A stretch of 64,000 nucleotides of DNA from Octopus vulgaris. Taxonomy: Eukaryota. The notes under the pieces are model-generated. The model was not told the DNA's origin. It did no database searches and saw only the letters and a list, made by a program, of their open reading frames with translations. Positions 13,053-58,126 of this stretch are shown here, piece by piece. How positions within the stretch are numbered: position 1 is the first letter of the stretch; each line of letters begins with the position of its first letter. The stretch spans positions 41,044,001 to 41,108,000 of the forward strand of contig OX597826.1 of NCBI GenBank assembly GCA_951406725.2, read 5' to 3'. The translations under genes and the position numbers were made by a program.

Positions 13053-13852
13053 GTTTAGAATATGGAATTTACATATCTAAAGATAATTGTAGAGCTGCTA
13101 CAATAGAGTTGTTTTACACTCTATTCTAACAAATCTATTGTAACAGCTTTACAATAAGCTATATAAATCACATGTGCTAAACCAATACCAACTTCTTTGC
13201 TTGTTCATTCTATCTTTCTACTGTACATATGTATGTGTGTGTGGTTTTATTGACATACAACCAATGTTTAGAACTCCACGTGTTCAGTTATATTAATTCA
13301 AAAAATTTGAGGAGTAAATGAGTTTCTTTCTGCAGTTCCATTCCAATATTTCAAACACAAGTACAAACATAAAATAGCTGTGGAGATCAAATTTTTACCT
13401 TTATTCATAAAGTGATATATATGAGATACAGGTGTTTATGATTTAACTTTCATAAACGTATAGTGAAACATGGGTTGTATATATTTATATTTCTAGAGGT
13501 AACACACACTCACTCACAGTGGATTTTATATATATAGATTAAATATATTTTCCCCTCTTCTTTCTCTAAAGTAACAGTGTAATTACTTCTAAATGTAACC
13601 TCTTATGTCATAACTAAAGTGTATTTGTTCGGGCTCACTAGTGTTATTTCCTGTTGCCTTCTCTATGTAGACCTGAGAAATAAGGTGTTAAATGTGAGAG
13701 TAAATAGATGTGGTAACATTTATGTATCTCCTGCAGACATAAAAAAACATGTGCATATCAATGTATCAGACATTGAATAAAATTTACAACTTGTCAATAT
13801 AAATTAAGTTCCTGTTTGTCTCACAGTCTTTTTTTTCATTCCAAATTCATAG

Positions 13853-14049
13853 ACTTCGGTTGCCTGAATGGGTGAAGACAGAAATTCCAATTGGCAAGAG
13901 CTACAGTGAAATAAAGGCAAGTTTACGGAACAATAAATTACACACTGTATGTGAAGAGGCCAAGTGTCCAAACATTGGAGAATGTTGGAGTGGAGAGAAA
14001 GGTACAGCCACTGCTACTATTATGATCCTTGGCGAATTGTGCACACGAG
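13853..14049 (+). CDS. LIAS: Lipoyl synthase - coding exon 2
   Basis: Acceptor cattccaaattcatAG; [13 protein letters not shown]...[17 protein letters not shown] (CX4CX5C auxiliary-cluster motif)...[15 protein letters not shown]; donor G|GTTGGT, phase 1. Confidence 0.95.
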
Positions 14050-16399
14050 GTTGGTTTCTTCTTTCTTATATAATATTTATTTATTTGATTGAAGTGTTAG
14101 ACCATTGGAGAAAATGCTTGGTAGTATTAGTTCCAAATTTTTACGCCCTAAGTTCATCTTTTCAGGGTCAATAAAATATAGTGCTTGTTAATAACTGGTA
14201 TAATCTAACCCCTTCTCCTCAAAATTGCTGGACTTGTGTTATTAAGGCAGCAGCAAGCTCGTAGAATCATTAGCACTTCAGGCAAAATGCTTAGCAGCAT
14301 TTGGTCTGTCTACATTCTGAGATCGACTTCACCTTTTATCCTTTCGGGGTTGATAAAATTAAGTACCATTTGAGCACTGGGGTCAATGTAATCAACTTAC
14401 CCCTCCTCTGAAATCGCTGGCCTTGTGCCAAAATTTGAAACTATTATTATTATTATTACCATTCGAGTGTGATCGTTACCAACGTCGCCTTACTGGCACC
14501 TGTGCTGGTGGCATGTGTAAAAGGATTCAAGCGAGGTCATTGTCAAACCACCTGACTGGCCGCTGGCCTTGTGCCAAAATTCAGAGTGGTTGGCATTAGG
14601 AAGGGCGTCCAGCTGTAGAAACTCTGCCAAATCAAGATTGGAGCCTGGTACAGCCCTCAGTCAAAATTGTCCAACCCATTCTAGCATGGAAAGCGGACGT
14701 TAAACGATGATGATGATGATGATTAATGTGGCAAGCTGACAGAATCATTGGCATGAATCAATAAATAAATAGTTTTTAGCTTTTAAAGTTTGTAATTTTG
14801 GGGTAATTTTAGCCAACTGTAAGACACATTCATGTCTGTTTCCATAGTAACAAGCCAAACATGAGAACTCTTTTGTCTGTGAGATAGCACATGTTGACAT
14901 ATATATTCTACTCGAAAGCATGTGTGTTGATGCTGTGTTCTGTTGCCTGTACTCTGGTCGAGAGAAGTGCTAAAAATAACACCCAAATAGGCCTTAATTC
15001 ACGCACCCCCACCCCAGTTTTTTTTTTTTTTTTTGCATAATTGTATGAATTCCCGAGTGTAGAATTACCAAATTCGCAAAATTTTTATGAAAATTCCAAA
15101 AAATAAAGAAGTTATGAGGGGTTGTATGTCATGCATAAAGCAGAAGTTGATTTATTTACAGTTTCATATTAAAACATGTCACGCACAAAATGACAGCGTC
15201 CAAATCCTGTTTTCTGACTGGGTGAAAATTTTCAAAATTTAAACCTCTATTTTTCTTGAAAAAAATTAAATATCTCCTGAGATTCAACTTGGAAAAGTAC
15301 ACTAATGAACCAAATTTTAAAATTTACAATAAACTGGAGTTTCTTTGTAATTCTAAAGTAGAGTACATTTGGTTCTAAGCCTTTGTTTTGGGGGGATTTT
15401 TTCCCTCTTTCCATAGAGTATAGGTACATTCTAGGAGGGCTGCCTGATAGCAGTTCTTTGATTTCCATTTCATATCAAGTTTTCGCAACTCTTAACACTC
15501 CAATAACAACTGGGAGTATTCTTACATCTATATTATAAATACTCACCATTTTAGTCTTCAGGCGTTAATGTTTGGACATTATTCCACTACATTTACCAAG
15601 CAAACCATATCAATTTGTAAACAAAATCTAGATCCATCAACTTTAATAATAAAACTGTCATTTCACTTTTATTTCATTGTCTGAACATTTTGCATGTTCC
15701 AATCACACCATATCTATTTATCATTCTGGGTTTGATAGTGTTTTTGTTGATTTAACCAACTATAACCACCACCACCACCATCACTACCATCCCACCCTAA
15801 AATAATTTTTAGCTTTGTACAATTATTCAAAAATCTGTTTCACAGCTGTTTGCCAAAATCAGTAGATCACTCGAATAAATGACTTACAGTATTAAGTTAT
15901 GTCCCCTTATGTTTGCAGTTCAAATCTCCTCAGGACCCTATGTCAACTTGTCTCTTGTTAGACCTCACATCTGGTCTGTCTCTACAGTATATTTGTTTCT
16001 CACTGACTCACATGTTGATAACTTTAAGAACCACATCTTAATTCTTTTTACCTTTCCTCACGTCTTCATTATTTTACACCCCTTATTCTTTTTTTTTATT
16101 TTGTTGCTGGCAGGGATTGAAGGGGTCTGCTCTAACACATCTTGCGTTTTAGTGAGGTCCTTTCTCGTCTGATAAACTCAACAACAGTGAAAACAAGCAG
16201 CCTTTATAGTTGCCTCATATACTTTTGGTTTCGATACCCTTCCTGCCACTAACCATTTCACAGTGTGGACTGTGTACATCTATTCATTCCACCAGTTGTT
16301 ATCTGCAACAAGGCTAAAGAATCACCTTTACCTTGCACCAGTTTTTATTCTCTTTAACCATTTTAAATTTCATTCTAATTCAATATTTTTATTTTGCAG

Positions 16400-17091
16400 G
16401 ATGCCGTTTCTGCTCTGTGAAAACTTCACGAGCTCCTCCTCCACCGGACCCAGATGAACCAGTGAATACAGCCAAGATCATCGCATCTTGGCTAGTAGAT
16501 TATATCGTGATAACTTCAGTAGATCGTGATGACATCGCAGATGGTGGAGCTGCCCATTTTGCTGAAACAGTAAGGCAGGTGAAAGCCCACAAGCCAACGA
16601 TTCTTGTGGAATGTCTTACCTCTGACTTTCGTGGCGACTTAGAATCTGTTGAGAAAGTTGCTAACTCAGGACTAAATGTTTATGCTCACAATGTAGAAAC
16701 AGTTAAAGACTTCCAGTGGCTTGTGAGAGATCCTCGTGCTAACTATGACCAATCAATGAAGGTTCTAGAACATGCCAAAAAAACTAAGCCAAAGTTAATC
16801 ACAAAAACATCTCTTATGTTAGGATTTGGAGAATCTGATGACCAAATCTTAAAAACAATGGAGGACTTGAGGAAAATAAATGTGGATTGTTTGACTTTGG
16901 GTCAGTATATGCAACCAACAAAACGACACATTAAAGTGAAAGAATATGTTCACCCAGATAAATTTCAATATTGGAAAGAAGTCGGTGACAAATTAGGATT
17001 TGCTTACACTGCTAGTGGCCCATTAGTAAGATCTTCTTATAAAGCAGGAGAATTCTATCTGAAAAATTTGGTGAAAAAGGCAGCCTCTTAG
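16400..17091 (+). CDS. LIAS: Lipoyl synthase - coding exon 3 (radical SAM barrel and C-terminus)
   Basis: Acceptor ttttgcAG; completes CTRG|CRFC (CX3CX2C); contains [40 protein letters not shown]; TAG at 17089-17091. Exon lengths 194+197+692 = 1083 nt = 360 aa plus stop. Confidence 0.97.
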
Positions 17092-24029: not shown

Positions 24030-25620
24030 GGTATAAGATCTTTGACTAGAAAATTAATCATCTACTCTATATGGATGATCTAAAACTGTTTGTCAAAAAC
24101 GACAAAGAATTAGAAGAGCTCCTGAATATTGTCAAAGAATTCAGCTCTGATATAGGTATGGAATTCAGACTTGATAAATGTACAATGGCTATTTTCAAGG
24201 CAGGAAAGTTCATAAAGGCAGAAAACATAAAACTTGATACCACCACAGTTATTTAAAACCGAGACAAATCCGAAGTATACAAATGTCTGGGAACAAATGA
24301 AGGTGATGGTATCTAGCACTCTAAAATGGAAGGGAAAATCTGCAAGAAATGCTACAAAAGGGTAGGAATGTTCCTAAACTCAGCATTAAATGTTGCTAAC
24401 AAAATTAATGCGATCAATTCTTTGGCCATACCAGTAACCACATATAGCTTCGGTATCATTAAGTGGAGTCTCACTGACATGCAGAATATGGATGGAAAGA
24501 TCTGTAAAATCTTTACAAGTTACTGAATGCACCATCCAAAATCAGATGTAGACAAGATTTATCTCCCAAGAAAAATAGGTGGAAGAAGCCTGATACAGTT
24601 CAAACAATCCTTCAAACCAGCAATAATAGGCCTTGAAACGTACCTTATTACCAGTGATGTGCTCTTATGAACTGCATTACCAGTGATGTGCTCTTATGAA
24701 CTGCACTGAAGCATGAAGATTCCAAACAAGTTTCAGTCATGAAGCTAAGTCAGAAATTTAAAAAAGTCTTTTGGCCTACAAGTTAACAATAAGAATGACC
24801 AAAGACACCCTAATACAGACAGATGCAGAAGACTGGTGGCTTTGGATGAGGAGTAGTGACCTGAAGGTAGAGACAGAAGCACTTATATGTGCAGCACAAG
24901 AACAAGCATTAAGTACTAATTATGTGAAGTGCAGAATCAACAATGCTACCAAAATAGACAAATGCAGAATGTGTGGTGAGAGGGATGAAATAGTATGGCA
25001 CACTATTAGTGAATGCCTAAAGATGACATGACAATGTGGCAAGAATAATCCATTGGGAGCTCTAAGGAAATTATGGCATACAAACAGCTAAGATGTGGTA
25101 TGATCAAACCCCAGAAGAAGTCACCGAAAATGAAGATTGCAAAATCCTGTAGGATGCAATGATTCAGTGAAATCACCTGACCAGACATTGGAAACTAGAC
25201 ATTGTTGTGGTGAATAAAAAAGAAAGAACTTGCATGAAAATCAACATAGCGTGTCTTGGTGACAACAGGATCAAAGAGAAAGAAGAAAAACTGAACAACT
25301 ACAATGATTTGAAGAGGGAAATACAAAGGTTATGGTCAATGAGGAGAGTAGATGTGATACCAATAGTAATTGGTACACTTGGAAGTATCAGCACTCAACT
25401 ACCAGCATGGCTCAAAAAGATCGGTACAAATGTAAAGACAGAACACCTACAAAACCCAACATTGCTTGGAACAGCAAGGATTCTTCCCAGGGTTCTTGAA
25501 GCATGACCAGTAAACAAGTGTCATCTCAGTCTGCTGGCTGTGGACAGCTAACACTTTCCATCATACCCAGCAAAATAAGCTGAGAGTTTTCATTAAATAA
25601 TAATAATGATAATAACAATA
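24030..25620 (+). mobile_element. R4/Dong-clade non-LTR retrotransposon remnant (RT end, zinc knuckle, RLE)
   Basis: HLLYMDDLKLF, NKINAINSLAIPVTTYSFGII, LKVETEALICAAQEQAL, CRMCG and IPIVIGTLG; many stops; TAA-rich tail; internal 29-bp tandem duplication at 24647-24704. Confidence 0.88.
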
Positions 25621-27137
25621 TTAAGTAGAAATGTTGGTGATAGGCTGAGTCAATTAAATCAACTTCACTATGACAAATTCTGGATGGATGAAAGGTAAAG
25701 TGAATCTTTTGGGTATTTGAACTCAGAACATACAGTGACATAACTAAAAGTATTCCCTCTGTAATTCCACAACTTAAAAAAAAAATCTTAAAACACTATT
25801 AATTTCAACTTCATTCACTGTGTACTTATTAAACTAAGGGATCTTATGTAGCATTATAGAACAAGGATAAATACCTTAATTCTTTGTCAAAAAACCTTTG
25901 TACCGTCATATTTTGTGAGGTGGTTATTTTTATTTTTATTCTTCTTGGAGCCATCTTCTTGAAATCTACCAACCACTACCATTATTATTCTGTCTTACAG
26001 ACATTTGCAAACATAAATTTTAATATTTGTAGACATTTTTTCATTTGCCAGTGATAAATAAAAGCTGGTCAAGAATGTTATTTCTTTTGACAGCTTATCA
26101 ATACTTACTGATTCCAAACTTTGGCATAACTAAGGACAAAAATGAACTGTTCAAACTCAGCTGATCAATACTATAAAAATCGTTTCCAATATCTTAAATG
26201 AAGAAGATCTAAGCAAAGAAAGAGGAAAGACAATATTTGGACCCAAAATATTTAAAACTTATAAGAATACATTTTCAATAAATATCAATATAGTGTCACC
26301 AATATTTTGATCAACTCTTGTAGGAAATATTTCCTTTGAGTAAAATATTATTTACAAGTCTTTGGAATTTTTTCAGAGATATTCATCTTAAAATCTTTAT
26401 AGTAGTTTCATTAAAAAATATTTATCCAGACTCTTTACATCCTTTCTCTCTCCCCCTCTCTCTCTATATATATATATATAAACATGAATTAGAAGTAGCT
26501 TGAGGTATATAAACAAAGTTGAACACACACAAGGTATGTATGTCGTTAGTTTGTCAGGCAGTTGTATTTTGAACTAACATGCACACCTTGTGTATGCGTG
26601 TTTGGTGTTATATATATATACACACATTTACATGCATGTATATACATATATGCGCATGCTTGTATGCATGTATGATTATTTTGTAAAATCAACAAAAATA
26701 GTATGTGATCAAGCTATGAACAGTGGAAAATCCAATATTTTGGACAAAGTCTTTTTCAGGAAAAGGTTGACAAGAGTAAAATTTTAAAAATACAGAAGAA
26801 TTTGACATCCTCTAAGTTGCAAAAAGGAAAGAAAATGGTAAATTGCACTGAAGAAGAACTCTATCTGAACCATCAATTTTCACTCCCCGCAGCAAGTTTA
26901 CTGTACTCTATTGATATTACTGTATAATAACAAGTCTTGCCAACACAGACCAATCCTGTCTCCTTGGAGTCTGCTTAATTGTATAGCACATTTATATTGC
27001 ATTCCATAAGCAATGATTTGAGATCATTAAAAGACTTTTGCTCTTCCTTAAACTGTTTTATCTAAAGTATCACCTTGTGAATTCCAGGCTTGCTTTTCAA
27101 CTTATTTGTTCCAGTAAAAATATTTTTGAAAATCTTG

Positions 27138-27280
27138 TTAGACAGGTAAGTAGTGTTTCCTGTCTTCAAGTGAAATGTTTATCCATAAAGAGTTAGATAA
27201 ATCATTACTCATCCAGTTGTAATGGAACCAAATGTTCGTCGCAACAATGAGATATTCTGACAAAGCAAACATAGTGAAAA
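27138..27280 (-). CDS. PGAP2: PGAP2 distal alternative terminal coding exon (B)
   Basis: Strong acceptor ttttctatttttcAG at 27282-27281, phase 1; (V)FTMFALSEYLIVATNIWFHYNWMSNDLSNSLWINISLEDRKHYLPV*, matching the PGAP2 F.FA..EY..V..N..FH block. Confidence 0.8.
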
Positions 27281-27407
27281 CTGAAAAATAGAAAAGAAAA
27301 TAAAAGAAATAAACAATACAATTTAATTCATTTACCATCGTAATTATTATTAAAACATGAACATGTATAGGTGTCTATCTATCTGTCTAAAAACATACAC
27401 ACACACA

Positions 27408-27449
<42 letters not shown>

Positions 27450-27451
<2 letters not shown>

Positions 27452-28690
27452 GAAATTAATAGAAAAACAAAAGACGAAGACAGGTGTATGAACAACAAGC
27501 AAGTGTATTAGTCTGATGATCAGGAAAAATGAAAAAGATTTTTACATTTCGAGCCTATGCTCTTCAACAGAAAGGAATAAGAGAAAATAAACAGGGAGAG
27601 AGTGAAAAAAAACTTGTAGATTTCAGCAGTCCAGCATGGCAAATGATTGGGAAAAAAGAGGTTGAAAGGAAGGGAGATAATAATAAAAAAAGAGAGGTCA
27701 AATGAAAGGGAGATAATAAATGCTAGCGATCCCAACAAGAGAAGGTGCGCATGTATGTGTGTGACTCTGATGTGTGTGTGTATGTGTGCATGTGTAACGT
27801 GTGTGTATTGTGTGTAGCAGTTGATGTGTGCTTTCTCATGTAGTGTGTGCATGTGTGTGTCTGTGACCCAAAATGTGTATGTGTATGGTGTATATACGTG
27901 GGTGAAAGTTATCTTTGTCTATGTATGTTGTGTGTGTATGTATATATAGCCTGTGTTCAAGTATATGTGCTTGTGTAGGCGTGGGAGTATATATTGTGTT
28001 CAGGTATTGTGTGCTTGTGAGTGTATGGGAGTGTGCATGATGGTGTGTGGTATATATACTGAGTTTCACCTTTGCATAACCTACCACAGCTGCATAGGAT
28101 GGAGCACACGCAGCCTTTGGTCATATTTTCTTCAATTGGTGGTTTCACTTGAAGGAGATATTTGCAAAGTGTTGTATTACTCTTGAATACTTATTTCTTT
28201 ATTACCCACAAGGGGCTAAACATAGAGGGGACAAACAAGGACAGACATAGGTATTAAGTCGATTACATCGACCCCCAGTGCGTAACTGGTACTTAATTTA
28301 TCGACCCCGAAAGGATGAAAGGCAAAGTTGACCTCGGCGGAATTTGAACTCAGAACGTAGCGCCAGACGAAATACTGCTAAGCATTTCGCCCGTAGTGCT
28401 AACGTTTCTGCCAGCTCGCCACCTGAATACTGTCCTGATGTCATATTGGCCACATATCTTTTGTATCTTTTTGGAGAGGCCCTTCACATAGGGTAGACAG
28501 ACTGTGGACAGTTTATTGGTGTCATTCTCTCTTCTCTTCATAATTGAAATGGGTAGTTGTTAATAGATTGTTATTTAGCTTGATCATTTCTTCCATGGTG
28601 GGTTGATGTACAGGCAACTAACTCAACACTACAGTAAACTACCACACATGTACGGTCTCCCTAAGTTCACCAGTTAGGACTTTGGTGAAC
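27450..28690 (-). mobile_element. Penelope-like element remnant (GIY-YIG endonuclease end and 3' terminal repeat), interrupted by a SINE
   Basis: LPYVKGLSKKIQKICGQYDIRTVF|KSNTTLCKYL...GCVCSILCSCGRLCKGET is a degenerate G.VY.IPC.C...YIGET; hammerhead-like core at 27537-27575. Confidence 0.75.
28192..28423 (-). mobile_element. Young full-length tRNA-derived SINE with 8-bp TSD
   Basis: TGAATACT at 28184-28191 and 28424-28431; head GGCGAGCTGGCAGAAACG, B box GAGTTCAAATTCC, core GCCTTTCATCCTTTCGGGGTCGATAAA. Confidence 0.9.
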
Positions 28691-30072
28691 AGACTTATCA
28701 CAATCAAACAAACATAGGTATCTAGTTATCAAGCTCAGTACTCACTGTTTTGAGTTCAAGTCACACTGACTGTTTTGCAGGATCACTAATCATCATTATC
28801 ATCATCATCAACATCCTCAACATTATCATTTAAACCTGCTGGCACAGTTGGAAGATCTGATGAACTGGAGGACAACATTGAGCTCTGATGTCTTTAGATT
28901 TGATGCAATTAATATAGGTGATTGAGTAGAGACACTCGGCAAATTCACCCACCAACAAAATATGGCTTCATGTCTAGTCAAATGGAGTAGGTAATTTAAA
29001 TGTAGTTGAAACAAATATTTGTAGGATGTTTTACAATCACATAGGCATAAAGTGGTTGAGTGAATATGGTATAGGATTGCCAGCACACAAAACTTGAGTT
29101 TAATTATTCTACTGCAAGTATATCAATCTATATTCAGGGGACACTTAACTCAGCAAAACATATCAGGTCATCTGGGAGTATAACATGAAACAGACTTGCA
29201 CCATAAACAGAAGATTTATTTCTTACTCAAGTCACTGAAATTTATAACGTCTCTCTGAAAGCTTTACAATTTAATCGTTATCATTACCACTGACATACAC
29301 TGCAGACATGTTTCAATTAACTTTGAAAATAATTAATTTAAATGAATTTAGTTAAATAATCAAATTTTTCATAATTAAAAAAGTGTTTGGAACATGGATG
29401 GTTTTCATATAAAATCATGATGAAAGGTTTTAATAGAAATGCATTTAGATGAGAGAGTTTGTTTTATAGAAGCAGAGGAATATCATGTGGATTAATGACA
29501 AAAGGGTTAAACTCCAGTCAGGTAATATGTACTTTACTCAAAGCATTGCCTATGATAAAAGGTAAACACATTGAATCATTGTGAAGGAAACCAATACACA
29601 CACACACACATAATATACAGAAACCAACACACAGGCACATACATATAATATACAGAAACTAACACACATAATATACAACCAACACACATATATAATATAA
29701 ATGCACATCCAAATATTACATGCACAAACAAAAAGAAAAATACAAAAACATGACACTTGTTATCAATTTAGCAAAGTGTAACAGTTTCTGTGAGAAGACA
29801 TCAATGACCAAATTGACTGGATCTCAGATAATCAGAGGCTTAATGTTTTATATATAGTCACAACTATGTGTTCATAACTGGCTGCAAGGAGTGACAGCAC
29901 TGTAAAACTGTTCAGTTTCATTGATTTACATCACTAAGTTCCAATTCCTTCCATGAGAAAAAAGTTCTTTTGATTGATCAGTAGCACATTATATATATAT
30001 ATATATATATATATATCTATATATATATCATCATCATCATTTAGCGTCCGCTTTCCATGCTAGCATGGGTTG

Positions 30073-30106
<34 letters not shown>

Positions 30107-32716
30107 CCAAAATCCAAATCCAAATCGATCAACATCAATGGAAGTTGCAGCTGTGATACCAGTGCCGGTGGTACGTAAGAGAACCATTCGAACGTGGCCG
30201 TTGCCAGCGCCACCCCGACTGGCCTCGTGCCGGTGGCACGTAAAAAGCACCATCCAATCGTAGCCGTTGCCAGCCTCGCCTGGCACGTAAAAAGCACCCA
30301 CTACACTCACGGAGTGGTTGGCATTAGGAAGGGCATCCAGCCGTAGAAACATTGCCAGATCAGACTGGGCCTGGTGCAGCCTTCTGGCTTCCCAGACCCC
30401 AGTTGAACCGTCCAACCCATGCTAGCATGGAGAGCGGACGCTAAATGATGATGATGATGATATGTACGGGATAGGAATTTATGCTTGATCTGATTGATGA
30501 TACATGAAGCAGAAATAAGCATCAATCTCTTGGATCTTTATGGTTTGAGAAACCAGCTGCCCAAACATCAATATCTTCTTCTTCTGCTTCCTCTCTAGAA
30601 TTTTCTTAATGATTGATAGCCATTGTTTAAAGTATCTTCAGTTCAGTGCTGACATATCTAGAAGACTGTCTTAAGATTGCTAGTGCACTAATTTAGACTC
30701 CTGGTAAGTGAATTCTGCAATACAGCTTCAATTCCTGGTTGAACCAGTTTTGCTTGCTTTTAGTTATTTCTTATGAAATTATGTCTTGAAAATTTGGTTA
30801 CAGATCCTATCTTTCTTCTTCTGGTTATTTTCTGGGTCTCTAAGATTGGTTAGGGGAAGGAAATAAGTTATCCTCAGGCCAGACACCTCACCTGAATACA
30901 TGTAACAAACTGTAATCCATTAAAGCTACCCATGGGCAAGTGATGGTGTTAAGCAGGGTGATGTATTAAGTGCAGGCATATAAAATAAAGGTTCACAAGT
31001 TCAAGCCCTGTCTGATCATATCTACTAACATATTGGAAGATGGTGAGAAACATTAAAGCACAATAAATCATATACAAAAAAAAAAATAAAGTTAATACTA
31101 ACAATATAAAAATATTATCTGTCAGTACATCATTGTTAAGTTTGGCATCACTAGTTTTCAAATTATGAGAGTTATTATTTATCAAGGACACTAGACTGAC
31201 TACCAGTGTACAAACTAACATTTAGTATGTTATCACTGACAAAGTGCTATAACACTGTCAAAGACACTTAATATTGAACAGTTTAGAGCAGTAAGCTTAA
31301 TCCTTTAGCGGTCAGAATACTCTTTCAAATGTAATGCTTATTTATTCAAATTGTTGTGAATTAATCATGCACTGTCTTGTAACTTTGAAATTTCAATGAT
31401 GTGATTGTTTATTTTTAGAATAACATTATATGGTAAGTGTGAGATGCCAGATCTGGATGGTTTGAATGTAAAACAGGTACAATATTTGGGTTAGATATGG
31501 ATGGTTTAAATGCTAAACGGTTAACCCTTTAATCCTTTCATGACCATTTTTCTCGTGAAATATTATCACTTTCAATTAACTTTGAAAATGGTGATGAATT
31601 TTAAGGAATGTAGTAAAATATCTTTGTCATCCTTCCTCTTGTGACCATGTCATTAGAAGAAACTAAACTAGTAAGGCTCATAAAGAGGCACAGTTCACTA
31701 TGTTTATTAGTAAGGGGACAATTTATGACTGTTTCTAACTTGCATTTTGAGAAGAACCTTTAGTACAAATGTTTCCAGCCACTGTACCATTGCACACTTG
31801 TATGTTACAAGTGTGTCACCAATGGGCCAAAGCTTTTAGAAGTGAGTTGGAAAATGTCAAAATATTCAGATAACTTTCCAATGCACTATTCTAGTGCAAG
31901 TGAATTTCTTTGCATTAAAATGCAATGTATCCACCCATCTCTATTTTAAAGCAATTTTGATATTTTTTATAAAGCAAAACTTATAAAGAGTTGGTGTGTC
32001 ACTATAACATTTTTAGCAGTTCATTCAGTGTTCTATGGATAAAAATCGGTTGAATATAATTATTTTAGTAGATTGGTGTCACAATGTTTTTGCAGAAAGG
32101 GATCTAGATCAAACTCTTAATGCCATACAAACTGGAAAATTTTCTCATAAGCATAACACTTTTTAATAAGCCACAATGAAAACATCTTTCAGTTAGTAAT
32201 AAATTCCAATTGCTGTGGTGGAAGAGAAATATTCTTTCCCAGAATAATACTTTTAGTTCAGTGCATGTAACTTTTCACGGTAGTTCCTGATATTCATTCG
32301 CTACAGCTTTATATAATTAACTCCTGGTCTGTAAAAGAAAGTGTTCTAGGTAGGGTTTAACAAAATTCTTGAAGACTTAAATTATATTGGAGAGAGGTGT
32401 GTCATATACATTGTTGTACATTGTTACATAATTGTTGAGGTGTTCATTGCATGGATGTGAAAGACTTTGTCCATAAAATGAAAAACAGCAAAACTGGCTT
32501 GTTTTAGTTTCAAGTATGGTAAGTGTATCTGTATACATAAATACATGTGTGCATGCAGGTATGGCTGTGGTAAGAAATTTGCTTCTCAACCACATGGTTC
32601 TAGGATCAGTCCCACTGTGTGGCACCTGTATGGCAATTGTTTTCTGCTATAGTCTCAGACTGACCAAAGCCTTGTGAGCAGAGTTGGTAGGCAGAAACTG
32701 AAAGAAACTTGTCATA

Positions 32717-33118
32717 TCTTCTTTATATATAAAAGTAAGGTTGTGTGTCTGTCTCCTACGATTTAGATTCCTAACTACTCCCACATTTTGAGGTGCAGTT
32801 TAACCAAAACTGGGTATCTTATAGTCGTGATTCATATCGAGCCCTTCTGGGTATTAGCGTGCGTCTACGATGAGTCTATGATTTTTAAAAAAATTTACCA
32901 TCATTGTTTTCCATTTTAATGCATTTTTTCGCTATTATATAAGGGAAGTAACTCTCTAAAAATGTCTACGATGAGTCAACGATTTAAAAAAAAAATTTAC
33001 CATAATTTTTTTTCCATTTTTAATGCATTTTTTTGCTATTTTTGGGCTATAACTCTCTAAAAATGCTTATATAGTTATTTCCCTTACAAACCCGAGCAAC
33101 GCCGGGCGATACTGCTAG
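32717..33118 (+). mobile_element. Non-autonomous Helitron
   Basis: 5' TC(TTC)TTTATATATAAAA; 3' hairpin CCCGAGCAACGCCGGG then CTAG|T at 33115-33118; internal tandem duplication. Confidence 0.85.
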
Positions 33119-36100
33119 TAGTTTATATAGTAGTAAATGAATGTCACTGTCACACAAGCAAAGCCATTATTTTCAATATACTGCAGGAACATATCTGGCC
33201 ATGGGGAAATATTATCTTGCTTGGAAATAAAAGAAGGTTGGCAACAGGAAGAGAATCCATCTCTAGAAAATCTGCCTTAATAAACCTTTCAACCCATGCA
33301 AGCATGGAAAGGTGGGCATTAAAATGGTGATGATAAATAAATAAACATTTTCAAATTTATTTCATCGATGCAACAAGGAAAATCATAAAGAACCCATATT
33401 ACCATCAACATCATTATCATTGTTGTTTTTCAAGCTGAAGAAGCCTCTACATAGTCACTCAACCAGTGAGAAATAGCAGCCAGATTTACATTGAATAACT
33501 CTGATATTTGTTTTAAAAAAAAGGAAGACACATTGGATAATGAATTCCTTGATATACTATGTCTGAAAAAAAAAGATGACTTGGTCACAAAATACCTTTG
33601 ATCAGATGCCTACTCAATCAGACTGAACCTTGGGCTAAACATCATAGTCACTATTGTTGTTTTAATAGTTTGTTTTTCCCTCCTGACATTGGTTGGATAT
33701 ATTTTCAAAACACTTCTTAATCCTACATCATTTTTTCAGTGAAGTCAGCCCAATCACGTTCCTTCAGCTTTCTGTCACATCTACCTTACACTATTACTCA
33801 ACATATCCATTTACACCATCACAACCATCTCTCTCTTAATTCCCAGGTTGCTCCACTCATGTACAGTTGCTCTTTCCACACACAAAATAGATTATACTCA
33901 GCTCATACAGACACTACTACAGACCCAGCTTTATTGAAACACAAAAAAATACCTAGTTGATTAACCCCAGGACAAACCTGATCCAACATATTTATGATTA
34001 AAAGTGTTCCAATTTTTATTAAGACACAGCATACTAAGGATTATTCTTTACAATGTGTTCTTCCTTTTATAAGGCAGAAGAGTGTGTTATAGCCCTTTAA
34101 CATTTAAACCAGCTATATTTACCCCAAATATTCTATCTATTTTATGCTCAAACTGGTCATATCTAACCTCTCACACCTATCCTACAATGTCATTCTAAAA
34201 ATAATCAATTACATCATCAAAATCTTAAAGACCATAAGATAATTCATGGTCAGTCCAAAACAATGTGAATGGATAAGCATTACATTTAACAGAGTAATTT
34301 GAATGCTAAAGCTTTAGCCGAAATGTGGTTGGTTTTTCTAAACTGGTTGAGTGACCATATAGAAGTTTCCTCTTCCATTCATATAACAGCTGTTGTTGTT
34401 AACCATGTTTTGCCTTGGACCAGCCCTGACTGAACTGGCCTACAATGAAAGATATTCCAGCCATGACCTGACATGTTTCTAATCTTTTTATAAACCTAAG
34501 AGCACATTGTTCAGTGAAGCCTTCCTGTTTTAAGATGGCTGGATGTGGTTTGAGGGATTTTAGCTGCCATAAAACACAAAAACATGAAAGATGAAGGTTA
34601 ATCTAAAAAAGATTAATTATTGTTAATGATCAGTAATAATTAATAAACTCACAACATTTTCAGGCAGAAAGCTATTTCTGTGTCTTCTAGCAGTTTCCCT
34701 GATTCTGATTCTAAAACAATGAAATGTTTTCACTCCATCTCATCTTCGAAATAATTTTGAAACAACCAACCAATTACAGTAATTAGCATCATTGCTTTTC
34801 CATTTTATTGGCAGAAATTTATAAATTTTTCTCTAAATTCATTGTTTCTTACCATTAACAAACATTTTTCTTGTAATTTGTGCATTTTCTTATTTAAAAA
34901 CAACAGAAAAACATAACTTTGTAAACAAGCTGTGAAATAGAATACAAAACAAAAATTCCTGAGTACAAAAAAAGAAAAACAGGAACTAAATCAAAGATAA
35001 AACTATCTGAAAAAACTTGGAATTAATTTTTTATTCATTTAAATGCCTTTTCAATAAAATTTGGTATAACATAAGAATATGGGCAATTAAATTCTTTAAA
35101 ACAATACAAAACAACAACAATCTCAAACAGGTCTTTGGAATTCATTGTTTCCAGGGGTAACTGAGAAAAGTAAAACATTTCTCACTAAAAACTACAAAAA
35201 TTAGGTATAATAATAATAATACTATTATGTACTTATTTTTGTTTTGGTGGGTGATATGAGATAAAAGATATATTTTTTTTTTAAATCAAGAAAAACTTTT
35301 GGCTAATATTTAATTAATGATAACATACTGAAATATACCTACTTGAATTTATGTGTGTGTGTGTATTATATATATAGCAATTACAGCATAGAAGACAGAT
35401 TTTAGTCATTGGAAAACATTCAAAAGTTTAACATTACTTAAATCATATATCACTTTAGGTCAATTTTGACAGCAAATTAATTAATGATTAACTGAAGTCA
35501 ATAATGGCTAATATGTGCCTTCTACACTGTAATTGCTTTAGTTTCAGCACATGGACTCTAGTCAAGTCCCTTGCAAAACAAGTACAATTCATATATAAGT
35601 GGTCAGCACATCCTTATGTTAGAAATATGTAGTCTGATGTAGAGTATTATGATATGGGTGACAGGATTACATTAATGGATCTAAAGGTTTCTTCTAAATG
35701 GCCATTTGACTGGGTGTTATAAATATTAGCAGCAGACTGAGAAGAAATTTCTTCTCACTGTGTATAATCAATTGACCAAAAAGCCAACTGAATGAAACCA
35801 TGGTTTAGATAATGTATCATCTTGTTTATCTCACATGCACACACACACTCCACAAGCACACACACACTCCACAAGCACACACACACACTCACACAATGTC
35901 CTCTATGATTTGGTCCCTCAGAAATGAAATGCAGAAAGTAATATTGATAGAATTAACAGAAGAATCAATGAGATCTATAGACCTGATTATATAACAAAAG
36001 AAAAATCACAATTATTTCCTTCAATATTTCGGACTGATTTGACTTATTAGATACACAGCAACACACAGACAGATATGTGGATTCTTAAAAATACCATTAA

Positions 36101-36514
36101 CTAATTAGTTTAGAGTGCATCTTTTGTTTTTTATCTTCTAATTTTCTATAGTAAAAGAGAAATTATGTTAGAAAAGGCATCAATCAACAAGGCCAGAATT
36201 CATTGTCAGAAACTCATAAAAGAACTGCTCATTAAATCAGTCCTACATGTCAGTACATCAAGAACTTTGTTATTAGGACTTCAAATACTGTTTGCAAAGT
36301 TTGATATTACTATGCTATAAATAAACTGTCTACATCTATTACTAGATCTAATAATACTAATACTATTACTACTGCACTTGCTGCTTGATATTAATGCATT
36401 TATATGGCATACTGAAGTCATCTTCATCCCTTTCTAAGGAGCAAACAATTTACATAAAGGCAACAACACCTTTTTTATATTAAAATAGAACACATACACA
36501 CTTCACACACATAC

Positions 36515-36558
<44 letters not shown>

Positions 36559-39500
36559 CAGTTAATAAACACAGGATTTGAATGTGAGCTATATGTTTCA
36601 TTTTCAGTAAGTGGGTTAGCGTGTATAGCATACCAACTTGAATGATTGCAGGATAATATCAGGCCCATCTGATTATTGTACTATCCAAGCATGAAACGTA
36701 TAGGAGCTCACATTTAAATCCCATGTCTTATCAAATTATATTCATCTCCCACCGGATTGAGTACTTATTGATTTTTACCAGTAACTGAACAGTGCACTAT
36801 ATATATATAATACATACACAGTGTGTGTATATATATATATTGGGAGAGTTATATGAAAGCCTATAAATATATTCACAAGTAATCCCATCAAGATAGTCAC
36901 AGGTAAATGTGAGGAAAACTTATGTGAATATAACTAACACCAGAATCACAATAGTGTCTATAAGCAATAGAACAATAGTGTTTTTGGGTGAAATTCTTAC
37001 AAAATGTGTTTGTGCACTCACACATCTCTTGCCAGAGGAACAGGATTATACTCCCTTCTTAGCCTGACCAATAGTAAATTAATGAAATACCTGACTAGTT
37101 ACACACTTAACAACAAAACTTCCATAAACTAGAAACCCTTCAACAGGTAAAACCCTTACCAAAATTAAAATCCCTTTGAGAGACAATCATGCAATATTAA
37201 TGTATGTCAATATATGAACTAATATAATCAAAAACACCATAAACCAAGAACTTGTAAACAAGTTTACCCGACAAGAACTATAATTTCAATAAAGGACAAC
37301 TCTAAAACCCTAAGAACAAAAGGTTCACAATCAACGACACACACACAAATAACAACAAATATATCCCATCTTCATTTGCTTAACAGATGATATTATGGTA
37401 TGTGTGTATGTATGAGTGTGTATGGATGTATATATGAATGTATATACTATACTATTTAGATACATATAAGATAATATGAACAAGTGTGGGGAAGAATAAT
37501 TCTTTTATACATTATCATATTTTCATTAAATAAAATATAATCTTTTGAAGCTTAGGAGTTGTAGAGGGGAAAGCTGCAGTTAAGTGAATTGAAGGCTACT
37601 TAAAAATCAAAACAGCATATTCATGTTAATATATGTTGACCTGAAATATCAGGTCATATACTTCGATCTGCTGTGCTAGTGCCACTCAAATTTGATCTGC
37701 AAGTGTTATTCAAGCTGATATTCAATATTAGTTACATTAGGAAGAGGTTTAAATTTGCACAGTCATCCAACTCATGCCAGTGTAAGAAGAAAATTAATTG
37801 AAAAACATGTTTGGAAGCAAATAGACCAAACAAAATAATAATTACACAGTTTTATTCATTTCAGTAACTACAAAACTATTTCAATAATGTAGAAAAACTA
37901 ATATCATTCACAGCAATAACAACCAAAATAGTTATTCACTAAAATTTAACTCTTAAAAATTCAACCAAATAAAATTAATGAAATGAAATTTTAAACAAGG
38001 AACAGTAAAGAGAATTTTAGTTTTCTCATGATACAGTTATATTACAGTTACAGTTCTGTTATTATTATAACACATATCACTACTATATTATATAGTATAT
38101 AATATTATATAACAGTACAGTTACCTTGCTTTTACATAACTACCTGTAGTACGAATTACTGTAAGTTTCTGCTTACACAAAAAACCTTATATTCTAGTGA
38201 TATTGTGAGTTACTGTGGGTAACTCCTAAGTATGTTATCTCCAAGTTAACCGCTGATCTTAACTATAGAAACAGACACTTCAAAATAATAGCTGTATAGT
38301 CACCATTCCCCCACTTTTTTTATATTTTCCAAATGTTACAACAGTACAATAAATATAATCATAACTTCAATAAATACAGAACAAAGATCTTTTTCTATCA
38401 GGTGCTTTCAACTGTTGCTAGCAGTCTTGTTCCACCTGTTTCTTACCATCAACAATTATTCATAAGGCTACATTAGATAATTCATAGTGAGATAGTTTGA
38501 TGTCCTATCCAAAAGGAGATTTATTCTTATCTCCTACAAGACTCGATCTCCCTTAATTATCCATTTAATCATCTCATCTCTACAGTCACATACCACACAA
38601 TCTCACAGATATGGAATACATGGTGGAGTAGACTTAATTAGTTTAACACCACCATGGGCGTTTCCACTCTGCTGGAAACAATCAGACCAGCTCTGAATGT
38701 TTGAGAAAAACTCCATACCTTGACACTCTGTTTTCTACTACAGCAACCCATAGAAGTGATTTCTTCCTCCCTATCTCCAAACATCTTGGAGATTTTGTAA
38801 AAGAAATGTCATGGGTTTTGTGTCTCAGGTCCTTCACTAAGACAACAAAAAAAAAACTACCAAAAAAAAAAAATCATAGTCTCACTATGTTTTACAGACA
38901 TACATGGAACTTACTTGTATGTCTATGAACATGTACTCACATGTCAAGCTCTCACTGTAACTATATTTCACCATAATTACAATCTCGCTGGTAATTATGT
39001 TTAATAGATATATTCTAGATGTACCTTAGTCATATTCTCATCATAACTGTGTTTCACATGCAATGGTAGTGTAGAACATAAAGGAGAATAAAACATTGAG
39101 AGATTTTCTTCTTCAAAACATGTTTCACATATATGCCACACAAAATATAAAATGTGTACAAAATTTTAAAATAAAGTATTTTTTTTATAAATGATGTACT
39201 AAAATAGTAATAAATAAACAATTTGTTTTAAATCATTTTCACGGTTCTCTGATTTTGTCAAACTGACTGGGAATAAAAAGAAAAAAATGCTATTTACATG
39301 TGATAGAGTGTATACAAACTGGCAGATTAAATGGTGATAAATTGTGAATAAAGATTTATAAAAAAAAAAAGATACTTTAGTCAAAGTGACAGATCTGAAG
39401 GTAGGAGTTGATATAGCAATCAATCTAAGATTATTACATAATATTATTTATAATAAAAAAAAAACATTTGTAAACATTGCTCATTATATATACAGATACA

Positions 39501-42500
39501 CTGTTAGAAAAAGTTAACTCAACATGGAACTTTACAGCAATCAACATTAATTGCAATAATTAGTTAACCACAAACATGATTACAGAGATACATTATAAAT
39601 AATAGAAAAAAATTATTTTTTTGAAAATTAATAATACTGTCTTACAATACACATAATTTCTGATTAAAAAAATATAAAACGGAAACAAATTTAATGAAGA
39701 GATCCATACTTATTTGACTTTGATGGTCATGCTTTATTAATTAAAGAATTATTAAATTCAGATTATATGTAAAAAATGTTTATCAGAGATTATTTGTCTC
39801 CTTTTTGTTAAAGTAATGTCCAGTAGCCTTCTGGAATGTAGTAAAATGCTAAAAATATCCCACCCAAAATGAAGAGGCTTGCAAGGACTAGTACTAACTA
39901 AAGAGATAAATCTCTCCTTGGATACAATGTAAGTCTGACACAGTCAACATTCCTCGATAACCCATTCCCCGACTGCCAAAATACAATGAAATATGTGTCA
40001 TGTACTGAACTCCAAACTTCTGAGTTGGCAATGCAATAATTTTATCCATCCTACCATTCTTCTTCTGCACTGATATGTTAGTACATCCTTGAGAGTATAG
40101 TCTTTGTGCAATGGTGATTTCAAGGGAAAAGAACACAGCAGAGAACATTTCAGTTGCCTTTTTCCAGCCTTATGGGAGGATTTGAGATAATCATTGTATT
40201 CGAAAACAATAATCCAGTTAACTGTGCCTCTCAATGGAACCTATTTTCAGTTAGGTACAGACAGTTTTTAATCTGTAAAATGCCAAGACAACAACATATC
40301 AAGAAATGGCAGGATACCTGATTCAGGATGCCAATCAGGTGGCACCCAACAGATATGGTATTTTGAAATTTTTTCTCTGTTATTTTTTTGGTTTTTATTA
40401 ATTTTTTAAACTGTTTAGTAATAATATGAAGTAAAACATCATGCCATCACACAAATATAGTAATCACACACACACACACACACACACAACAAAAAAAATA
40501 ATAATAAATTGAACTGCATACCAATTTTTTGGAATAGACTCAAAAGTTCAGATTTAATGGAAGCAAAAGAAAGGGGACGAAAAAAGCAATCTGATAGACT
40601 TTTGTGATTCTTATAATTCAGATGTTAAAAATATCAAATTATGATCTATGGAAAAAAAGAAAAAAAGATAAATATATAAGCACTTTCCACCCAACTCTAC
40701 CCATTTCTTATGAAAATTAGAATTCATATTCTTGTAAAAATATCTAGTATCACACAAAAGCACAAACTGTCCGTAAAAATGCTATTCATCTTAGCAATTT
40801 TAAAAAACTTCAAGCAAAGATAAATACTTATTATTAATAATAATAATAGATTTATACAGTTTATTGTAGATTTTTGAAGAAAACTGGAATTAAATTCCTG
40901 TTTGTTTCAATAATGTTACAGTAAATATCACACAGATATAGATAAAGCTTTGACCCTTCACAGAATCATTAGTGAATAATATGGTGGAGATAAGGAATGA
41001 GGACAATCGGTTGGGAAGGAATTTATAAAAAAATAAATAAATATCTTCAAAGCCAGCCTAAAAAAGCTCACTAAGAACAGTGAGCAGTGCTAATTGCAGG
41101 GTGTGAAGTGAGTGAGGGAGAGATAAATACCACCCCTACTAAGACGGCATTCTCTCAAAAATAAGATTCCCAGAATGTCTTGCATATATTTCTATCTGCT
41201 AGGTAAACCAAATTATAAACAATTATAAGTTTTATCCAATGATACAAATGAAATGCAAGCAGTAGATTTGAACAGGGGACTTTTTAAGTAGTCCTGTACA
41301 ATAACCACTGGGCCAGTTTGTCACAATTGGGCATGGTTTGTTCTAAAAGTAAAAGGACTGAACTCACAGCCTGTTGACATTAACAAGGGGCCTATATGTA
41401 TATGTATACATACAGCCATACACATAAACAAACAGTTGATGTGCTTCTTCAAAATTTCCAACAACCAAAGTACTGATCAACCCAAGGCTAAAGTAGAAGG
41501 CAGCTGCTGAAGGTGCCATGCAGTAAAATTGAACCTGGAACCATGCAATTTCAAAGCAAACTTCTTCACAATACAGCCATGCCTGTCTCTGCACACAACA
41601 CACATGTGTGTGTGTGTCCAAGTATACACATATATAGAGAGGAACTACACAAGTGTACAACAATCCAGAGTAAAAAAAAACAAATATGGTAGGATTATTA
41701 TTACCAATATTATTGGTTATGGTTTTTATGGTTTTAGTAGTAGCGGCAGCTGCTGCAGTTGTATCATCTAAAACTGACCTGAGAGTGGATATGGATTCAC
41801 TGGCTCCGCATCCCTGTCAATAATACCTATCGGTTCCTGTATACATGTCTTGCCAGGTCTGTTGCAGTAAAAACAGTTTCTTGTTTTTTTTGCTAAGCTA
41901 TAAACATACTGTGACCAGGATTAGGCCTAGGATGATGGCACCTGAGTAAGCTGAATTTCTGCACCCTCACGACTAGAAATAAACAAATTTCTAATAATTT
42001 ATCAAATGTAAGAAGGTTTTATTTCATTTTTCTACTTTCATATTTTTCTCTTTGTAGTTCTTGGAACATATTAAACATGACATAGTACCTCAACCACAAC
42101 GCTTCTTTAAGCACATCATGTCCCAGGCAACTACTTGAGTTGCTGGTAACGTCAACAGCTTTGACTGTGACACTTGTATTATAAAACATGTTGACATTTT
42201 CAATACTGAAATATTCTAATTCATATGTAAATTAGGATTTTACTTTGGGTTTGTTTGCTTTTTAACAAGACAATACTTTCTAAACCCAGCAACATTTCTA
42301 TACTACAACACCTCAAAGTAAAAAAAATAATAAACAGAATTAATGGTATTCTAAAAGAGATATCCATTTACTGAATATAACTTCCACATAGTATATGTCC
42401 CCTTTCTTTAGTAACTTAATAGTTTCAATATGTGACATCAGTTCAGATCTTTTGCAAAACAAATATAATAAAGGCATTATTATAACAGTTTTAGTAAAAA

Positions 42501-42612
42501 CGTTACAAGCTTATAATAATAGTCAAAACAACTATTGACAAGTAAATAAATTTCTTTGTAGAGAGAAAAGCACAACAATTTGTTGGCAGTAAATACACTT
42601 ACTGTAAAATTG

Positions 42613-42654
<42 letters not shown>

Positions 42655-43259
42655 TGTATGCATGCAATAATGTTGAATTAATAACAAGATGTTTATTTTA
42701 AAATGTAATGATAAGTGCAATTTTCCACTGACATTTTTGAATAAAATTAAATGGTAATGAAAAAATATTTGCCAAAACAAATGCGATACATATTTCATAG
42801 TAGTTGAAGCTGCCTGCTATTCTTCCTGACGTGTGTGTGTGTGTGTGTGCACGTGCATATATACATGGGAAGCAGGATTAGTCAATACATAACAGAGTTA
42901 ATAACAACAACAATAAATAAATTTTTTAAAAAAGTGAGATTTTACATAATTGTTACTTTGAGCTTTGTATCTCTACTTTTGGTCACAAGTCAGTTGCTAT
43001 AGAAACTGGAGATGTAAAAGTTGGTGTAGAGAGGTGTAGAATCACAGCTTTTACTTCTTCACACACATATATATATGCATGTATATACATATACGCACAC
43101 ACACATATATATGTATATACATATACACGCATTATATGAGAGAAAATATAATACAGAAGAAAAATAACTAATGAAAATAGCTAATTAACACTGAACTAAA
43201 ATTCCTTATATCTTAAGTGGTACATATATTATGTGCATGCATGTGTGCATGTAAAGGAA

Positions 43260-43408
43260 TCAAGTTTTCTTTTCCTTGTTCTCCACCAGGCTACCATCTG
43301 CTATGAGGCATAGGTTATAACCATTATAGTCAAGAAGCCAAGTGTAGCCATGGAATGTGATGTTTGAAAATACCATCAGATACTCAATCAAGGCAAAGAT
43401 AGAATACA
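43260..43408 (-). CDS. PGAP2: PGAP2 proximal alternative terminal coding exon (A)
   Basis: Not in the ORF track. Acceptor ttattcttctttcAG at 43410-43409, phase 1; (V)YSIFALIEYLMVFSNITFHGYTWLLDYNGYNLCLIADGSLVENKEKKT*, close to the vertebrate PGAP2 end as I recall it (VYTIFAILEY..LTNMAFH). Confidence 0.88.
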
Positions 43409-52617: not shown

Positions 52618-52726
52618 CTCCTGGTTCGCAGTATTTATTATGTCGCCAATACACGTAAGCAGCAATGAAACAACATGATATGTTGAACACAAATAAGGTA
52701 AATTTGGTTGAATAAGATTTCCTTTC
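52618..52726 (-). CDS. PGAP2: PGAP2 penultimate coding exon
   Basis: ctattctAG|ERKSYSTKFTLFVFNISCCFIAAYVYWRHNKYCEPG|GTAAGC; RHN.YCE.G is a PGAP2 hallmark; phase 0 in, phase 1 out. Confidence 0.93.
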
Positions 52727-54259
52727 CTAGAATAGAAAACAAAAATAACAGGCCTGAATGGTTATAGAATGTTTTATAAAAATTCATTTTAATGCAATTA
52801 TGTAAATTCACAAATATATAGCAATACATCTTGGTAGAGTCAATAAACCAAATAACACACACACAGTATTACATTACATTTTATTATTGTTTTGTGTTAA
52901 CAATATTATTTCATGTATAACTTAATTTCAAAGTCTTTCACCATTTCTTTCACTTGGATAATTATGGTGGCTAGACATAGCAACCAAATCTCCCTCATAC
53001 CACTTTATGCACGACTGGCATGAGAATGATCTTCGACCAAGTTACGTCACAGAATAGAAACGTTTGTAATGTCAAGTGACAACCACACATTAAATGACAA
53101 GTTCTAGTGTACAGTGTTTACATGTCTGTACAACTTTAATACTCAGCTGTATTAACTAAATCAGTCACAAAAAATTCCTGTTATATATTTGATCTGTGAC
53201 CTACTGATGATTATAGATTGACAGTTTAACCCCTTAGCATCTAAACTGGTCATATCCAGCCAAAATATTCTACCTGTTTTATGTTCAAACTAGCCAGATT
53301 CAGCCTCTTGCACCTACCCTAGAACATCATTCTAAAAATAAGTAATCACATCGAGATTTCAAAGCTGTGAGATAATGCATGGCTAATTCGAAACAATGTG
53401 AATATATAAGCATTACATCTGGCAGAGCAACCTGAATGCTAAAAGGTTAAAACTGGAAGCACATTAAAATGAAAAAATAAATAAATAAATAAATAAAAGA
53501 CAAATAGTAATAAGACAGACAGCAGTGCAGTATGTTCAAATAAATTTTTTTAAATCTCATTCAACAAAAAAAACTAGTATGGTAAACAGGTTTGGAAAAT
53601 CAGGAGAGAATGTAGAAAAAGGGAGCATTACCAAATGGCTAGAAAATCAGCTAGGTGATAGGTATATTTAGCCAAGGGTAAAACAGAGAAGAGGAGATTT
53701 GTACATGTCTTGCAATGTGAAGCTGAGAGGCATGAGGTGAAAATAGTCCAATCCTGGAATGGCATGTCCTTGACAAGGGAGGTTGCCCATTATGTTGTTG
53801 ATGAGTCTGGGATGACATTGACATCTCTTTTCTTCAAGTTTCTGACATCGGATTATTTCAAAGCATGCAGCTCCTTCATTACAGAGGAGCACCAGGTTTG
53901 CCAATTCCGAACAAAGTATTCAAGTTGTGCCAGTTGAATGTTGCAGGATTTGAGGACAAGCTTAAGATAATCCCTGTGAGGAAGCTAGAGTCATTTCATA
54001 TCCTTTGTCTCCAGTGAATTAAACATATTACTTGGAAAGATAAGGTCCCCCACACAGAAATTCTCCAGCAAGCAGGAATCTCCAGCATTGAAGCCAACAT
54101 CCAATGCCATCTAAGATGGGCTGGTCACATCAGGATGCCTGACAATTGTCTCCCAAAGATGGTCTTCTTCAGAGAGCTTTCAACCATTGCTTGCCCACAC
54201 AGGGGTTTTGTAATATGCATGAAAGACGATTGCAATGATTTGGACAGCTGTATAAAGTG

Positions 54260-54410
54260 TTAATCCCTTAATGTGGTTAGAGTTTGTGGAAGAGGGAAAC
54301 CCAGGAAAATATAGGATGATGTAGTGAAGACTCACCTTGGGACCCTCAGCCCCACAACAGCGATGACAAAGGACAGGGTTGTCTGGCCATATGAGGTTCT
54401 CAAGGAAACC
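54260..54410 (+). mobile_element. RTE LINE C-terminal fragment
   Basis: GRGKPRKI.DDVVKTHL..L resembles the RTE end at 23250-23460. Confidence 0.55.
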
Positions 54411-58010: not shown

Positions 58011-58126
58011 TCTTGCAGACATCGTCCTGCCATCGTATGTGCGGCCCCATTTCACTAGAATTATAGTCAACAGCATATAACACAAAGAAGATACAAGAAA
58101 TGTGATGAAAAACTTTTCATGAGCAT
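58011..58126 (-). CDS. PGAP2: PGAP2 internal coding exon
   Basis: ttttttcAG|(Y)AHEKFFITFLVSSLCYMLLTIILVKWGRTYDGRTMSAR|GTAAGG; phase 1 in, phase 0 out. Confidence 0.93.

Follow-up and report, generated by a model that had tools for sequence, protein, structure and literature searches.

Paired alternative last exons of octopus PGAP2 and their contrasting C-terminal tails

How can one gene give a multi-pass membrane protein two different ends, and what would the choice between them do? The question is raised by a 64,000-nucleotide (nt) stretch of Octopus vulgaris DNA (contig OX597826.1, positions 41,044,001 to 41,108,000), called the window below, which carries the gene PGAP2. The mammalian product is described as a Golgi multi-pass protein that is needed for the reacylation of glycosylphosphatidylinositol (GPI) anchors (review PMC7125958). 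An earlier note on this DNA had proposed that the gene possesses two paralogous alternative terminal exons, A and B, with contrasting sorting motifs at their ends. The observation itself is confirmed: the window holds one minus-strand PGAP2 gene, and both last exons are predicted from their splice signals to join in frame to the same exon at 52618..52726. That alternative last exons of octopus PGAP2 exist is practically certain. Unless another reference is named, coordinates are positions of the window, and the exons of this PGAP2 gene lie on its minus strand.

The common, penultimate exon (52618..52726) is 109 nt long, is bounded by AG and GTAAGC, encodes helix 5 with the motif RHNxYCEPG and ends in phase 1. 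It corresponds to positions 156-190 of the Pfam family Frag1, and as a fragment it scores under the Pfam cut-off. The proximal last exon A (43260..43408) and the distal last exon B (27138..27280) are each preceded by a pyrimidine tract ending in TTTCAG, and each has a frame that stays open to its stop codon. The positions, phases, acceptors, intact frames and peptides that the earlier note had given for these three exons all hold. Both last exons encode a predicted helix 6, a strand and a tail, which ends in KEKKT (a KxKxx motif) in A and in HYLPV, lacking a lysine at the third position from the end (Lys-3), in B. The first AATAAA after the stop of A, at 42692..42697, lies about 560 nt downstream and is its candidate poly(A) signal, while a tandem AATAAA at 25929..25940, about 1.2 kb after the stop of B, is the candidate for B. 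As two homologous terminal exons in tandem, in the same phase and in one gene, A and B constitute a tandem duplicated 3' exon. A six-frame motif scan of the window found exactly two copies of the last exon and no third. There is no strong donor-like site in A or B, or in the 400 nt after either. Constitutive joining of A and B in one transcript was ruled out, because the frame stops within A and A lacks a donor-like site.

Upstream of the common exon, coding exon 3 (58011..58126; phase 1 in, phase 0 out) and coding exon 2 (59144..59402; VPNYLPSIS... to ...ENH; phase 0 in, phase 1 out) were placed by tblastn and splice sites, and exon 1 lies about 11 kb past the end of the window. The open frame that holds exon 2 matches Frag1 (PF10277) with E=3e-17 and 63.3 bits, against a curated cut-off of 30.3. 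Among the 120 matches listed, the named ones are all PGAP2, PGAP2-like or CWH43-N, the rest being unnamed or hypothetical, and no DRAM or TMEM150 protein appears. A stretch at 60012..60083 (minus strand) and segment L019 656-709 correspond to first exons that O. sinensis isoforms X3 and X4 use as alternatives; because the X3 match carries a stop here, the X3 N-terminus is probably not a real coding exon.

Is the second last exon an old and useful copy, or a relic? The two exons are identical at 12 of their 20 leading residues, as the earlier note had counted. Over the first 59 nt the identity by codon position is 14/19, 16/20 and 7/20 for the first, second and third positions. Since the first two positions have been kept while the third is saturated, the duplication appears to be old and to have been held by selection on the protein. 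No homology was found between the flanks, where blastn of about 4 kb around each exon returned simple-repeat or AT-rich bits and a weak exon hit. Conservation in relatives points the same way, in agreement with the age and selection that had been proposed: B matches at 44/47 residues in O. bimaculoides and 33/47 in Argonauta, and is recognisable in Sepia. Between Octopus and Sepia-like sequences, the first 35 residues are identical at 29/35 positions in A and 18/35 in B, as compared with 23/36 in the common exon. Eight exon positions (Y, F, A, E, Y, N, F and H) are conserved in 20 of 22 copies of the exon. As these helix-6 positions are kept in both exons, both isoforms probably retain the same core activity.

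It might be argued that B is a dead duplicate, a part of another gene or an assembly artefact, and two predicted proteins named O. vulgaris, which use neither exon, would fit such a reading. It is nevertheless very improbable, and largely refuted, given the conservation of B just described and the fact that RefSeq isoforms and short contigs of related species carry B behind the same upstream sequence. Copies of the upstream exons were found neither between A and B by tblastn on the window nor in a genome search, and the view that B is not a second gene therefore stands. A second PGAP2-family gene is present on the same contig 40 Mb away, at about 81.10-81.13 Mb, with 35-43% identity. One last exon was found for it, ending in the KKxx motif KKQR; its helix 6, NMGFHMTAAYDF, is nearer to the vertebrate and arthropod wording than either exon of the window. 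Since this gene is distant and has a last exon of its own, B is not part of it.

Are both exons used? In O. sinensis, the tails of RefSeq isoforms X1, X3 and X4 are exactly A and the tail of X2 is exactly B. In O. bimaculoides, the last exon is A in X1 and X3 (47/49) and B in X2 (44/47), and the Argonauta gene model has a B-type last exon (33/47). Among the Logan proteins that fall into the 90% cluster of Sepia pharaonis PGAP2, one upstream sequence is followed by either tail; the B type was found on 12+1 contigs, and a single contig carries the A type. These Sepia-like contigs are only 943-1047 nt long, which leaves no room for introns, and yet contain the whole 260-residue frame, from which we infer that they are spliced transcripts. 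The RefSeq models and the short contigs of relatives together are good indirect evidence that A and B are both used as alternatives in transcripts. Two points count against this conclusion: the RefSeq isoform models are automated annotation, and the two O. vulgaris-named predictions bypass both exons. These two forms, which would lack helix 6, may be minor or spurious. One takes as its last exon an 11-codon segment at 40611..40646 (minus strand) with a good pyrimidine-TAG acceptor, and the other reads through into the intron after 52618. A search of sequencing runs with the common exon listed no RNA run and is not used as evidence.

The pair is not confined to octopus. When all retrieved proteins were grouped by an identical upstream stretch of 100 residues, pairs that agree upstream and carry two different, homologous last exons appeared in 11 genera of cephalopods, bivalves, gastropods and a brachiopod: Octopus, a Sepia-like form, Pecten, Mizuhopecten, Potamilus, Haliotis (in four species), Littorina, Aplysia, Biomphalaria, Physella and Lingula. 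Alternative last exons that are paralogous and belong to a single gene are therefore more widespread than the earlier note had claimed. In-frame fused gene models that carry two copies are found in Biomphalaria, Bulinus and the annelid Lamellibrachia, and in these the hydrophobic, B-like copy comes second, as it does in the octopus genome. Against so wide a distribution stands the count of clusters with members listed, of which 11 of 20 contributed to a pair and nine did not (Argonauta, Pomacea, Mytilus, Saccostrea, Branchiostoma, Tachypleus and three others). Argonauta, Pomacea and one further cluster have a single member each. The Mytilus cluster has nine members with one common last exon, and its isoform numbers skip. 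In Saccostrea, a short extension and an additional tandem gene are found in place of the exon pair. Since clustering at 90% can hide a partner, these nine clusters are not proven absences. No second last-exon type was seen among the retrieved vertebrate and amphioxus proteins.

The paired exons contrast at their very ends. Exactly one member of the pair has a lysine at position -3 in 10 of 11 genera and in 6 of 7 deeper lineages. When the last 15 residues were shuffled, in a test that does not use the A and B labels, the means were 1.5 for genera and 1.0 for lineages, and the observed values were reached in 0 of 20000 shuffles. Once labels are applied, Lys-3 is present in 10 of 11 A tails and in no partner tail. 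The same residue is present in 75 of 77 vertebrate-type tails (75 of 81 once four extended-tail isoforms are included). In lophotrochozoan-type tails it is at -3 in 42 of 76, as against 1-13 at each of the other nine positions from -1 to -10; for some rows, membership of the two groups was decided by likeness. Since Lys-3 is also the vertebrate PGAP2 ending, it is taken as ancestral, which makes A the default form and B the derived one. The octopus A tail KEKKT goes further and matches the dilysine signal, which calls for Lys at -3 and at -4 or -5. The earlier note was thus right that A ends in a canonical KxKxx and that the tails contrast, even though the full motif is a feature of only some A tails and the more general element is the older Lys-3.

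In the partner tails, the sequence [LIF]-P occurs within the last six residues in 8 of 11, and in none of the 11 A tails. A class II PDZ ligand has the form Phi-x-Phi-COOH, in which Phi is hydrophobic. This pattern is present in the B tails of Octopus (L-P-V), Potamilus, Haliotis and Lingula, while the remaining 7 of 11 genera do not have it, three of them ending in L-P-R. The suggestion that B carries a class II PDZ ligand or a terminal-valine signal fits those four genera and not the rest, and what generalises is the loss of Lys-3 together with [LIF]-Pro. A YxxPhi endocytic signal in B (octopods, Sepia and Haliotis; 3 of 11 genera) is a possibility at the level of single lineages.

A COPI dilysine signal would require a tail that faces the cytosol, and the predicted structures bear on this point. 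For the B and A isoforms of O. sinensis, whose exons were matched in the window by tblastn, AlphaFold models have mean predicted local distance difference test scores of 82 and 91, respectively, and six long helices in both. COPI here is coat protein complex I. The last exon supplies the helix 226-252, the strand 257-262 and a low-confidence tail, in agreement with the proposal that it encodes the final helix. Strands 22-27 and 257-262 are the only strands in both models. Because they are predicted to pair, the N- and C-terminus are placed by the models so as to lie on the same side of the membrane, and the loop between helices 4 and 5, with seven Lys or Arg residues, is on that side as well. 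This side is presumably the cytosol, a placement that the bias in charge supports in part. A fold search gave no match in the PDB at E<=0.001. In a wide search the best match (Z 11.3, root-mean-square deviation 4.2, 205 residues aligned) was a designed helical filament, a score that generic helical bundles also reach and that is uninformative.

What, then, would the choice of last exon do? We consider it moderately probable that it switches PGAP2 between an A form retrieved by COPI and a B form that escapes retrieval, a proposal drawn from the tail sequences. Use of the proximal acceptor and poly(A) site would give A, whereas skipping to the distal acceptor would give B, each with its own 3' untranslated region (UTR). 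Lys-3 and the free C-terminal carboxylate are key COPI contacts, and Arg cannot replace Lys (Jackson et al. 2012, PMC3521961). In the same source the dissociation constant is 6.8 uM for KTKLL and about 160 uM for STKLL, so that a tail with Lys-3 only binds about 20-fold more weakly than KxKxx. A would be bound by alpha/beta'-COP and would cycle from the endoplasmic reticulum (ER) to the early Golgi. The full KxKxx A tails of coleoids and pulmonates would have a higher affinity than the tails with Lys-3 alone that occur in vertebrates, scallops, abalone and Lingula, and their second lysine would probably pull this form to an earlier point in the pathway. B, without the signal, would move further along the secretory route to the late Golgi or post-Golgi, where it may be held by a partner that reads the hydrophobic [LIF]-P-x end.

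Several observations weigh against this proposal. Littorina is an exception to the contrast, having one exon with Arg-3 and another with two endings, one of which has Lys-3; isoforms X3 and X1 were taken for the shuffle test, and it is the X2 ending that has the lysine. Full KKxx or KxKxx motifs are found in only 4 of 11 A tails (Octopus, the Sepia-like form, Biomphalaria and Physella), and Lys-3 alone is a weak COPI binder according to PMC3521961, while most A tails are not dilysine. The B tails have no one common known motif, with a PDZ class II pattern in 4/11, YxxPhi in 3/11 and a hydrophobic last residue in 6/11. The [LIF]-P feature was defined after the data had been seen, and related genera are not independent. 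The cytosolic placement of the tails follows from an inferred orientation. Moreover, the exchange of A for B alters about 40% of helix 6 and the strand that follows, so the effect could lie elsewhere.

This last point leads to a different reading, in which the alternatives are real but selection acts on helix 6 and the strand, as these would tune the lipid substrate, the preference for acyl chains or the binding of partners, with the tail secondary. The exon does hold the invariant or near-invariant residues F230, E234, Y235, N241 and H245; A and B are different at 8 of the 20 leading residues, and coleoid B is on a long branch with conserved features of its own. The eight conserved helix-6 positions are nevertheless the same in 20/22 copies, and across classes the helix part has almost no A-versus-B signal, whereas the tail contrast is seen in 10/11 genera, which makes this reading unlikely. 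Slightly less likely again is control at the RNA level, in which two 3'UTRs provide tissue-specific stability, localisation or dosage and the proteins are equivalent. A separate candidate poly(A) signal follows each exon, about 0.56 kb after A and about 1.2 kb after B, and alternative poly(A) use is described as selecting duplicated 3' exons (PMC8373072). Such control does not predict that Lys-3 is consistently kept in one tail and lost from the other, or that the [LIF]-P end recurs, and the UTR regions of A and B have similar U contents and ATTTA counts. Retrieval of A and escape of B remains the reading that we prefer.

PGAP2 tails are also varied by means other than a duplicated exon, as seen in Saccostrea, Littorina, Tachypleus and Esox. 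In the first two of these, the protein ends either with Lys-3 or in an extension (HPV in Saccostrea, SLPSA in Littorina). Such alternation may reflect selection that has favoured the same pair of options more than once. Among second whole-gene copies (scallops, abalone, Batillaria, Elysia and oyster), eight of eight have Lys at -3.

Did the pair arise once or repeatedly? The A exons cluster together, and so do the B exons, within each of four groups: coleoids, pectinids, abalones and euthyneurans. In a tree of the common part from a quick search, the pair-bearing genes fall into one orthologous group; extra whole-gene copies of scallop, abalone and Elysia lie inside their own lineages, and the oyster copies are unresolved among bivalves. 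Comparison of the exons across classes is confined to 38 saturated columns, and the tree of these columns leaves the B types ungrouped, with five changes and with one change in 0% of bootstrap trees. This result would favour several origins, for instance one in coleoids, with convergence on the same tail contrast. So would the one-residue insertion and the Trp after FH that coleoid A and B have in common and that are mostly absent elsewhere, as well as the grouping within species in 27 of 78 cross-class quartets and the description of convergent exon duplications as common (PMC9741552). The remaining quartets pair Lys-3 tails with each other and hydrophobic tails with each other (K+K/H+H) in 36 cases, are crossed in 11 and tied in four. 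Both the quartets, which come from the helix region, and the 38-column tree are too weak to decide. One origin is not rejected by the approximately unbiased test (p-AU 0.133). Two groupings across classes have starred branches, Lingula-B with unionid-B and unionid-A with coleoid-A, the order of the exons is alike in the octopus genome and the three fused models of gastropods and an annelid, and the pair-bearing genes are orthologous. Repeated origin has an appreciable though minor share of the probability, and a single ancient duplication is, on balance, moderately probable. Such a duplication would be over half a billion years old. We propose more tentatively that a duplication ancestral to molluscs, brachiopods and perhaps annelids gave PGAP2 a retrieval-free tail ending in an undescribed [LIF]-P-x sorting signal. 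If this were true, last-exon choice would provide for remodelling of GPI or related lipids beyond the Golgi, or for a DRAM/Sfk1-like role of PGAP2-B outside the Golgi.

A lipoyl synthase (LIAS) gene at 13803..17088 on the plus strand, with the Pfam domains LIAS_N and Radical_SAM, is convergent to PGAP2 and ends about 9 kb from the candidate poly(A) site of B; the open frame 9372..9650 is perhaps its first exon, to judge by likeness. The open frames at 361..797, 1604..2230, 24050..25503, 53662..54260 and 62506..62817 look like fragments of reverse transcriptases of the long interspersed element (LINE) type, and 11028..12342 looks like a decayed hAT-like transposase.

The pair is of wider interest because PGAP2 biology has gaps that it could help to fill. 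The review PMC7125958 leaves open whether PGAP2 is itself the acyltransferase, and how the protein is retained in the Golgi is not settled. The near-universal Lys-3 of animal PGAP2, vertebrates included, is a candidate weak COPI signal. Since nature supplies pairs with the same core and opposite tails in 11 genera, tail-swap experiments would be straightforward. If B acts beyond the Golgi, splicing would determine where a major lineage of animals carries out the remodelling of GPI lipids or a related activity. Literature searches, with most subscription journals outside their coverage, found no description of twin last exons in PGAP2, and the gene is not mentioned in the main text of two papers on human tandem exons (PMC8373072 and PMC9741552). 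The arrangement may be called undescribed in this sense, as the earlier note had supposed, even though both isoforms are already present in automated RefSeq annotation.

Duplicated last exons with different sorting tails are known from other genes, and octopus PGAP2 therefore adds an old, newly found case and no mechanism of a new kind. For the protein itself the nearest known likeness, the vertebrate PGAP2/FRAG1 proteins (PF10277, Frag1/DRAM/Sfk1), are about 45-52% identical, have the same core motifs and carry Lys-3 as exon A does, but differ in having a single last-exon type among the retrieved proteins and Lys-3 only. For the gene architecture the nearest likeness is LAMP2, in which the 3' exons encode a transmembrane helix and a sorting tail. 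Among human tandem-exon-derived substitutions, 77 of 236 events are C-terminal, and they include LAMP2, with three homologous 3' exons, and NECTIN2, in which duplicated last exons are likewise chosen via alternative poly(A) sites (PMC8373072). Octopus PGAP2 is unlike these two in being a multi-pass lipid-remodelling protein whose duplicated exon belongs to the conserved core, and in having the pair, so far, only in lophotrochozoans. For the sorting proposal the nearest likeness, and a precedent that has been tested, is SLC35A2, a multi-pass Golgi protein in which a C-terminal splice choice adds or removes a dilysine and shifts the location, UGT1 being in the Golgi and UGT2 in the ER and Golgi through its dilysine tail (PMC3180625). 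In SLC35A2 only the tail is changed, and the part of that source seen makes no statement of duplicated exons, whereas PGAP2 exchanges a whole helix together with the tail.

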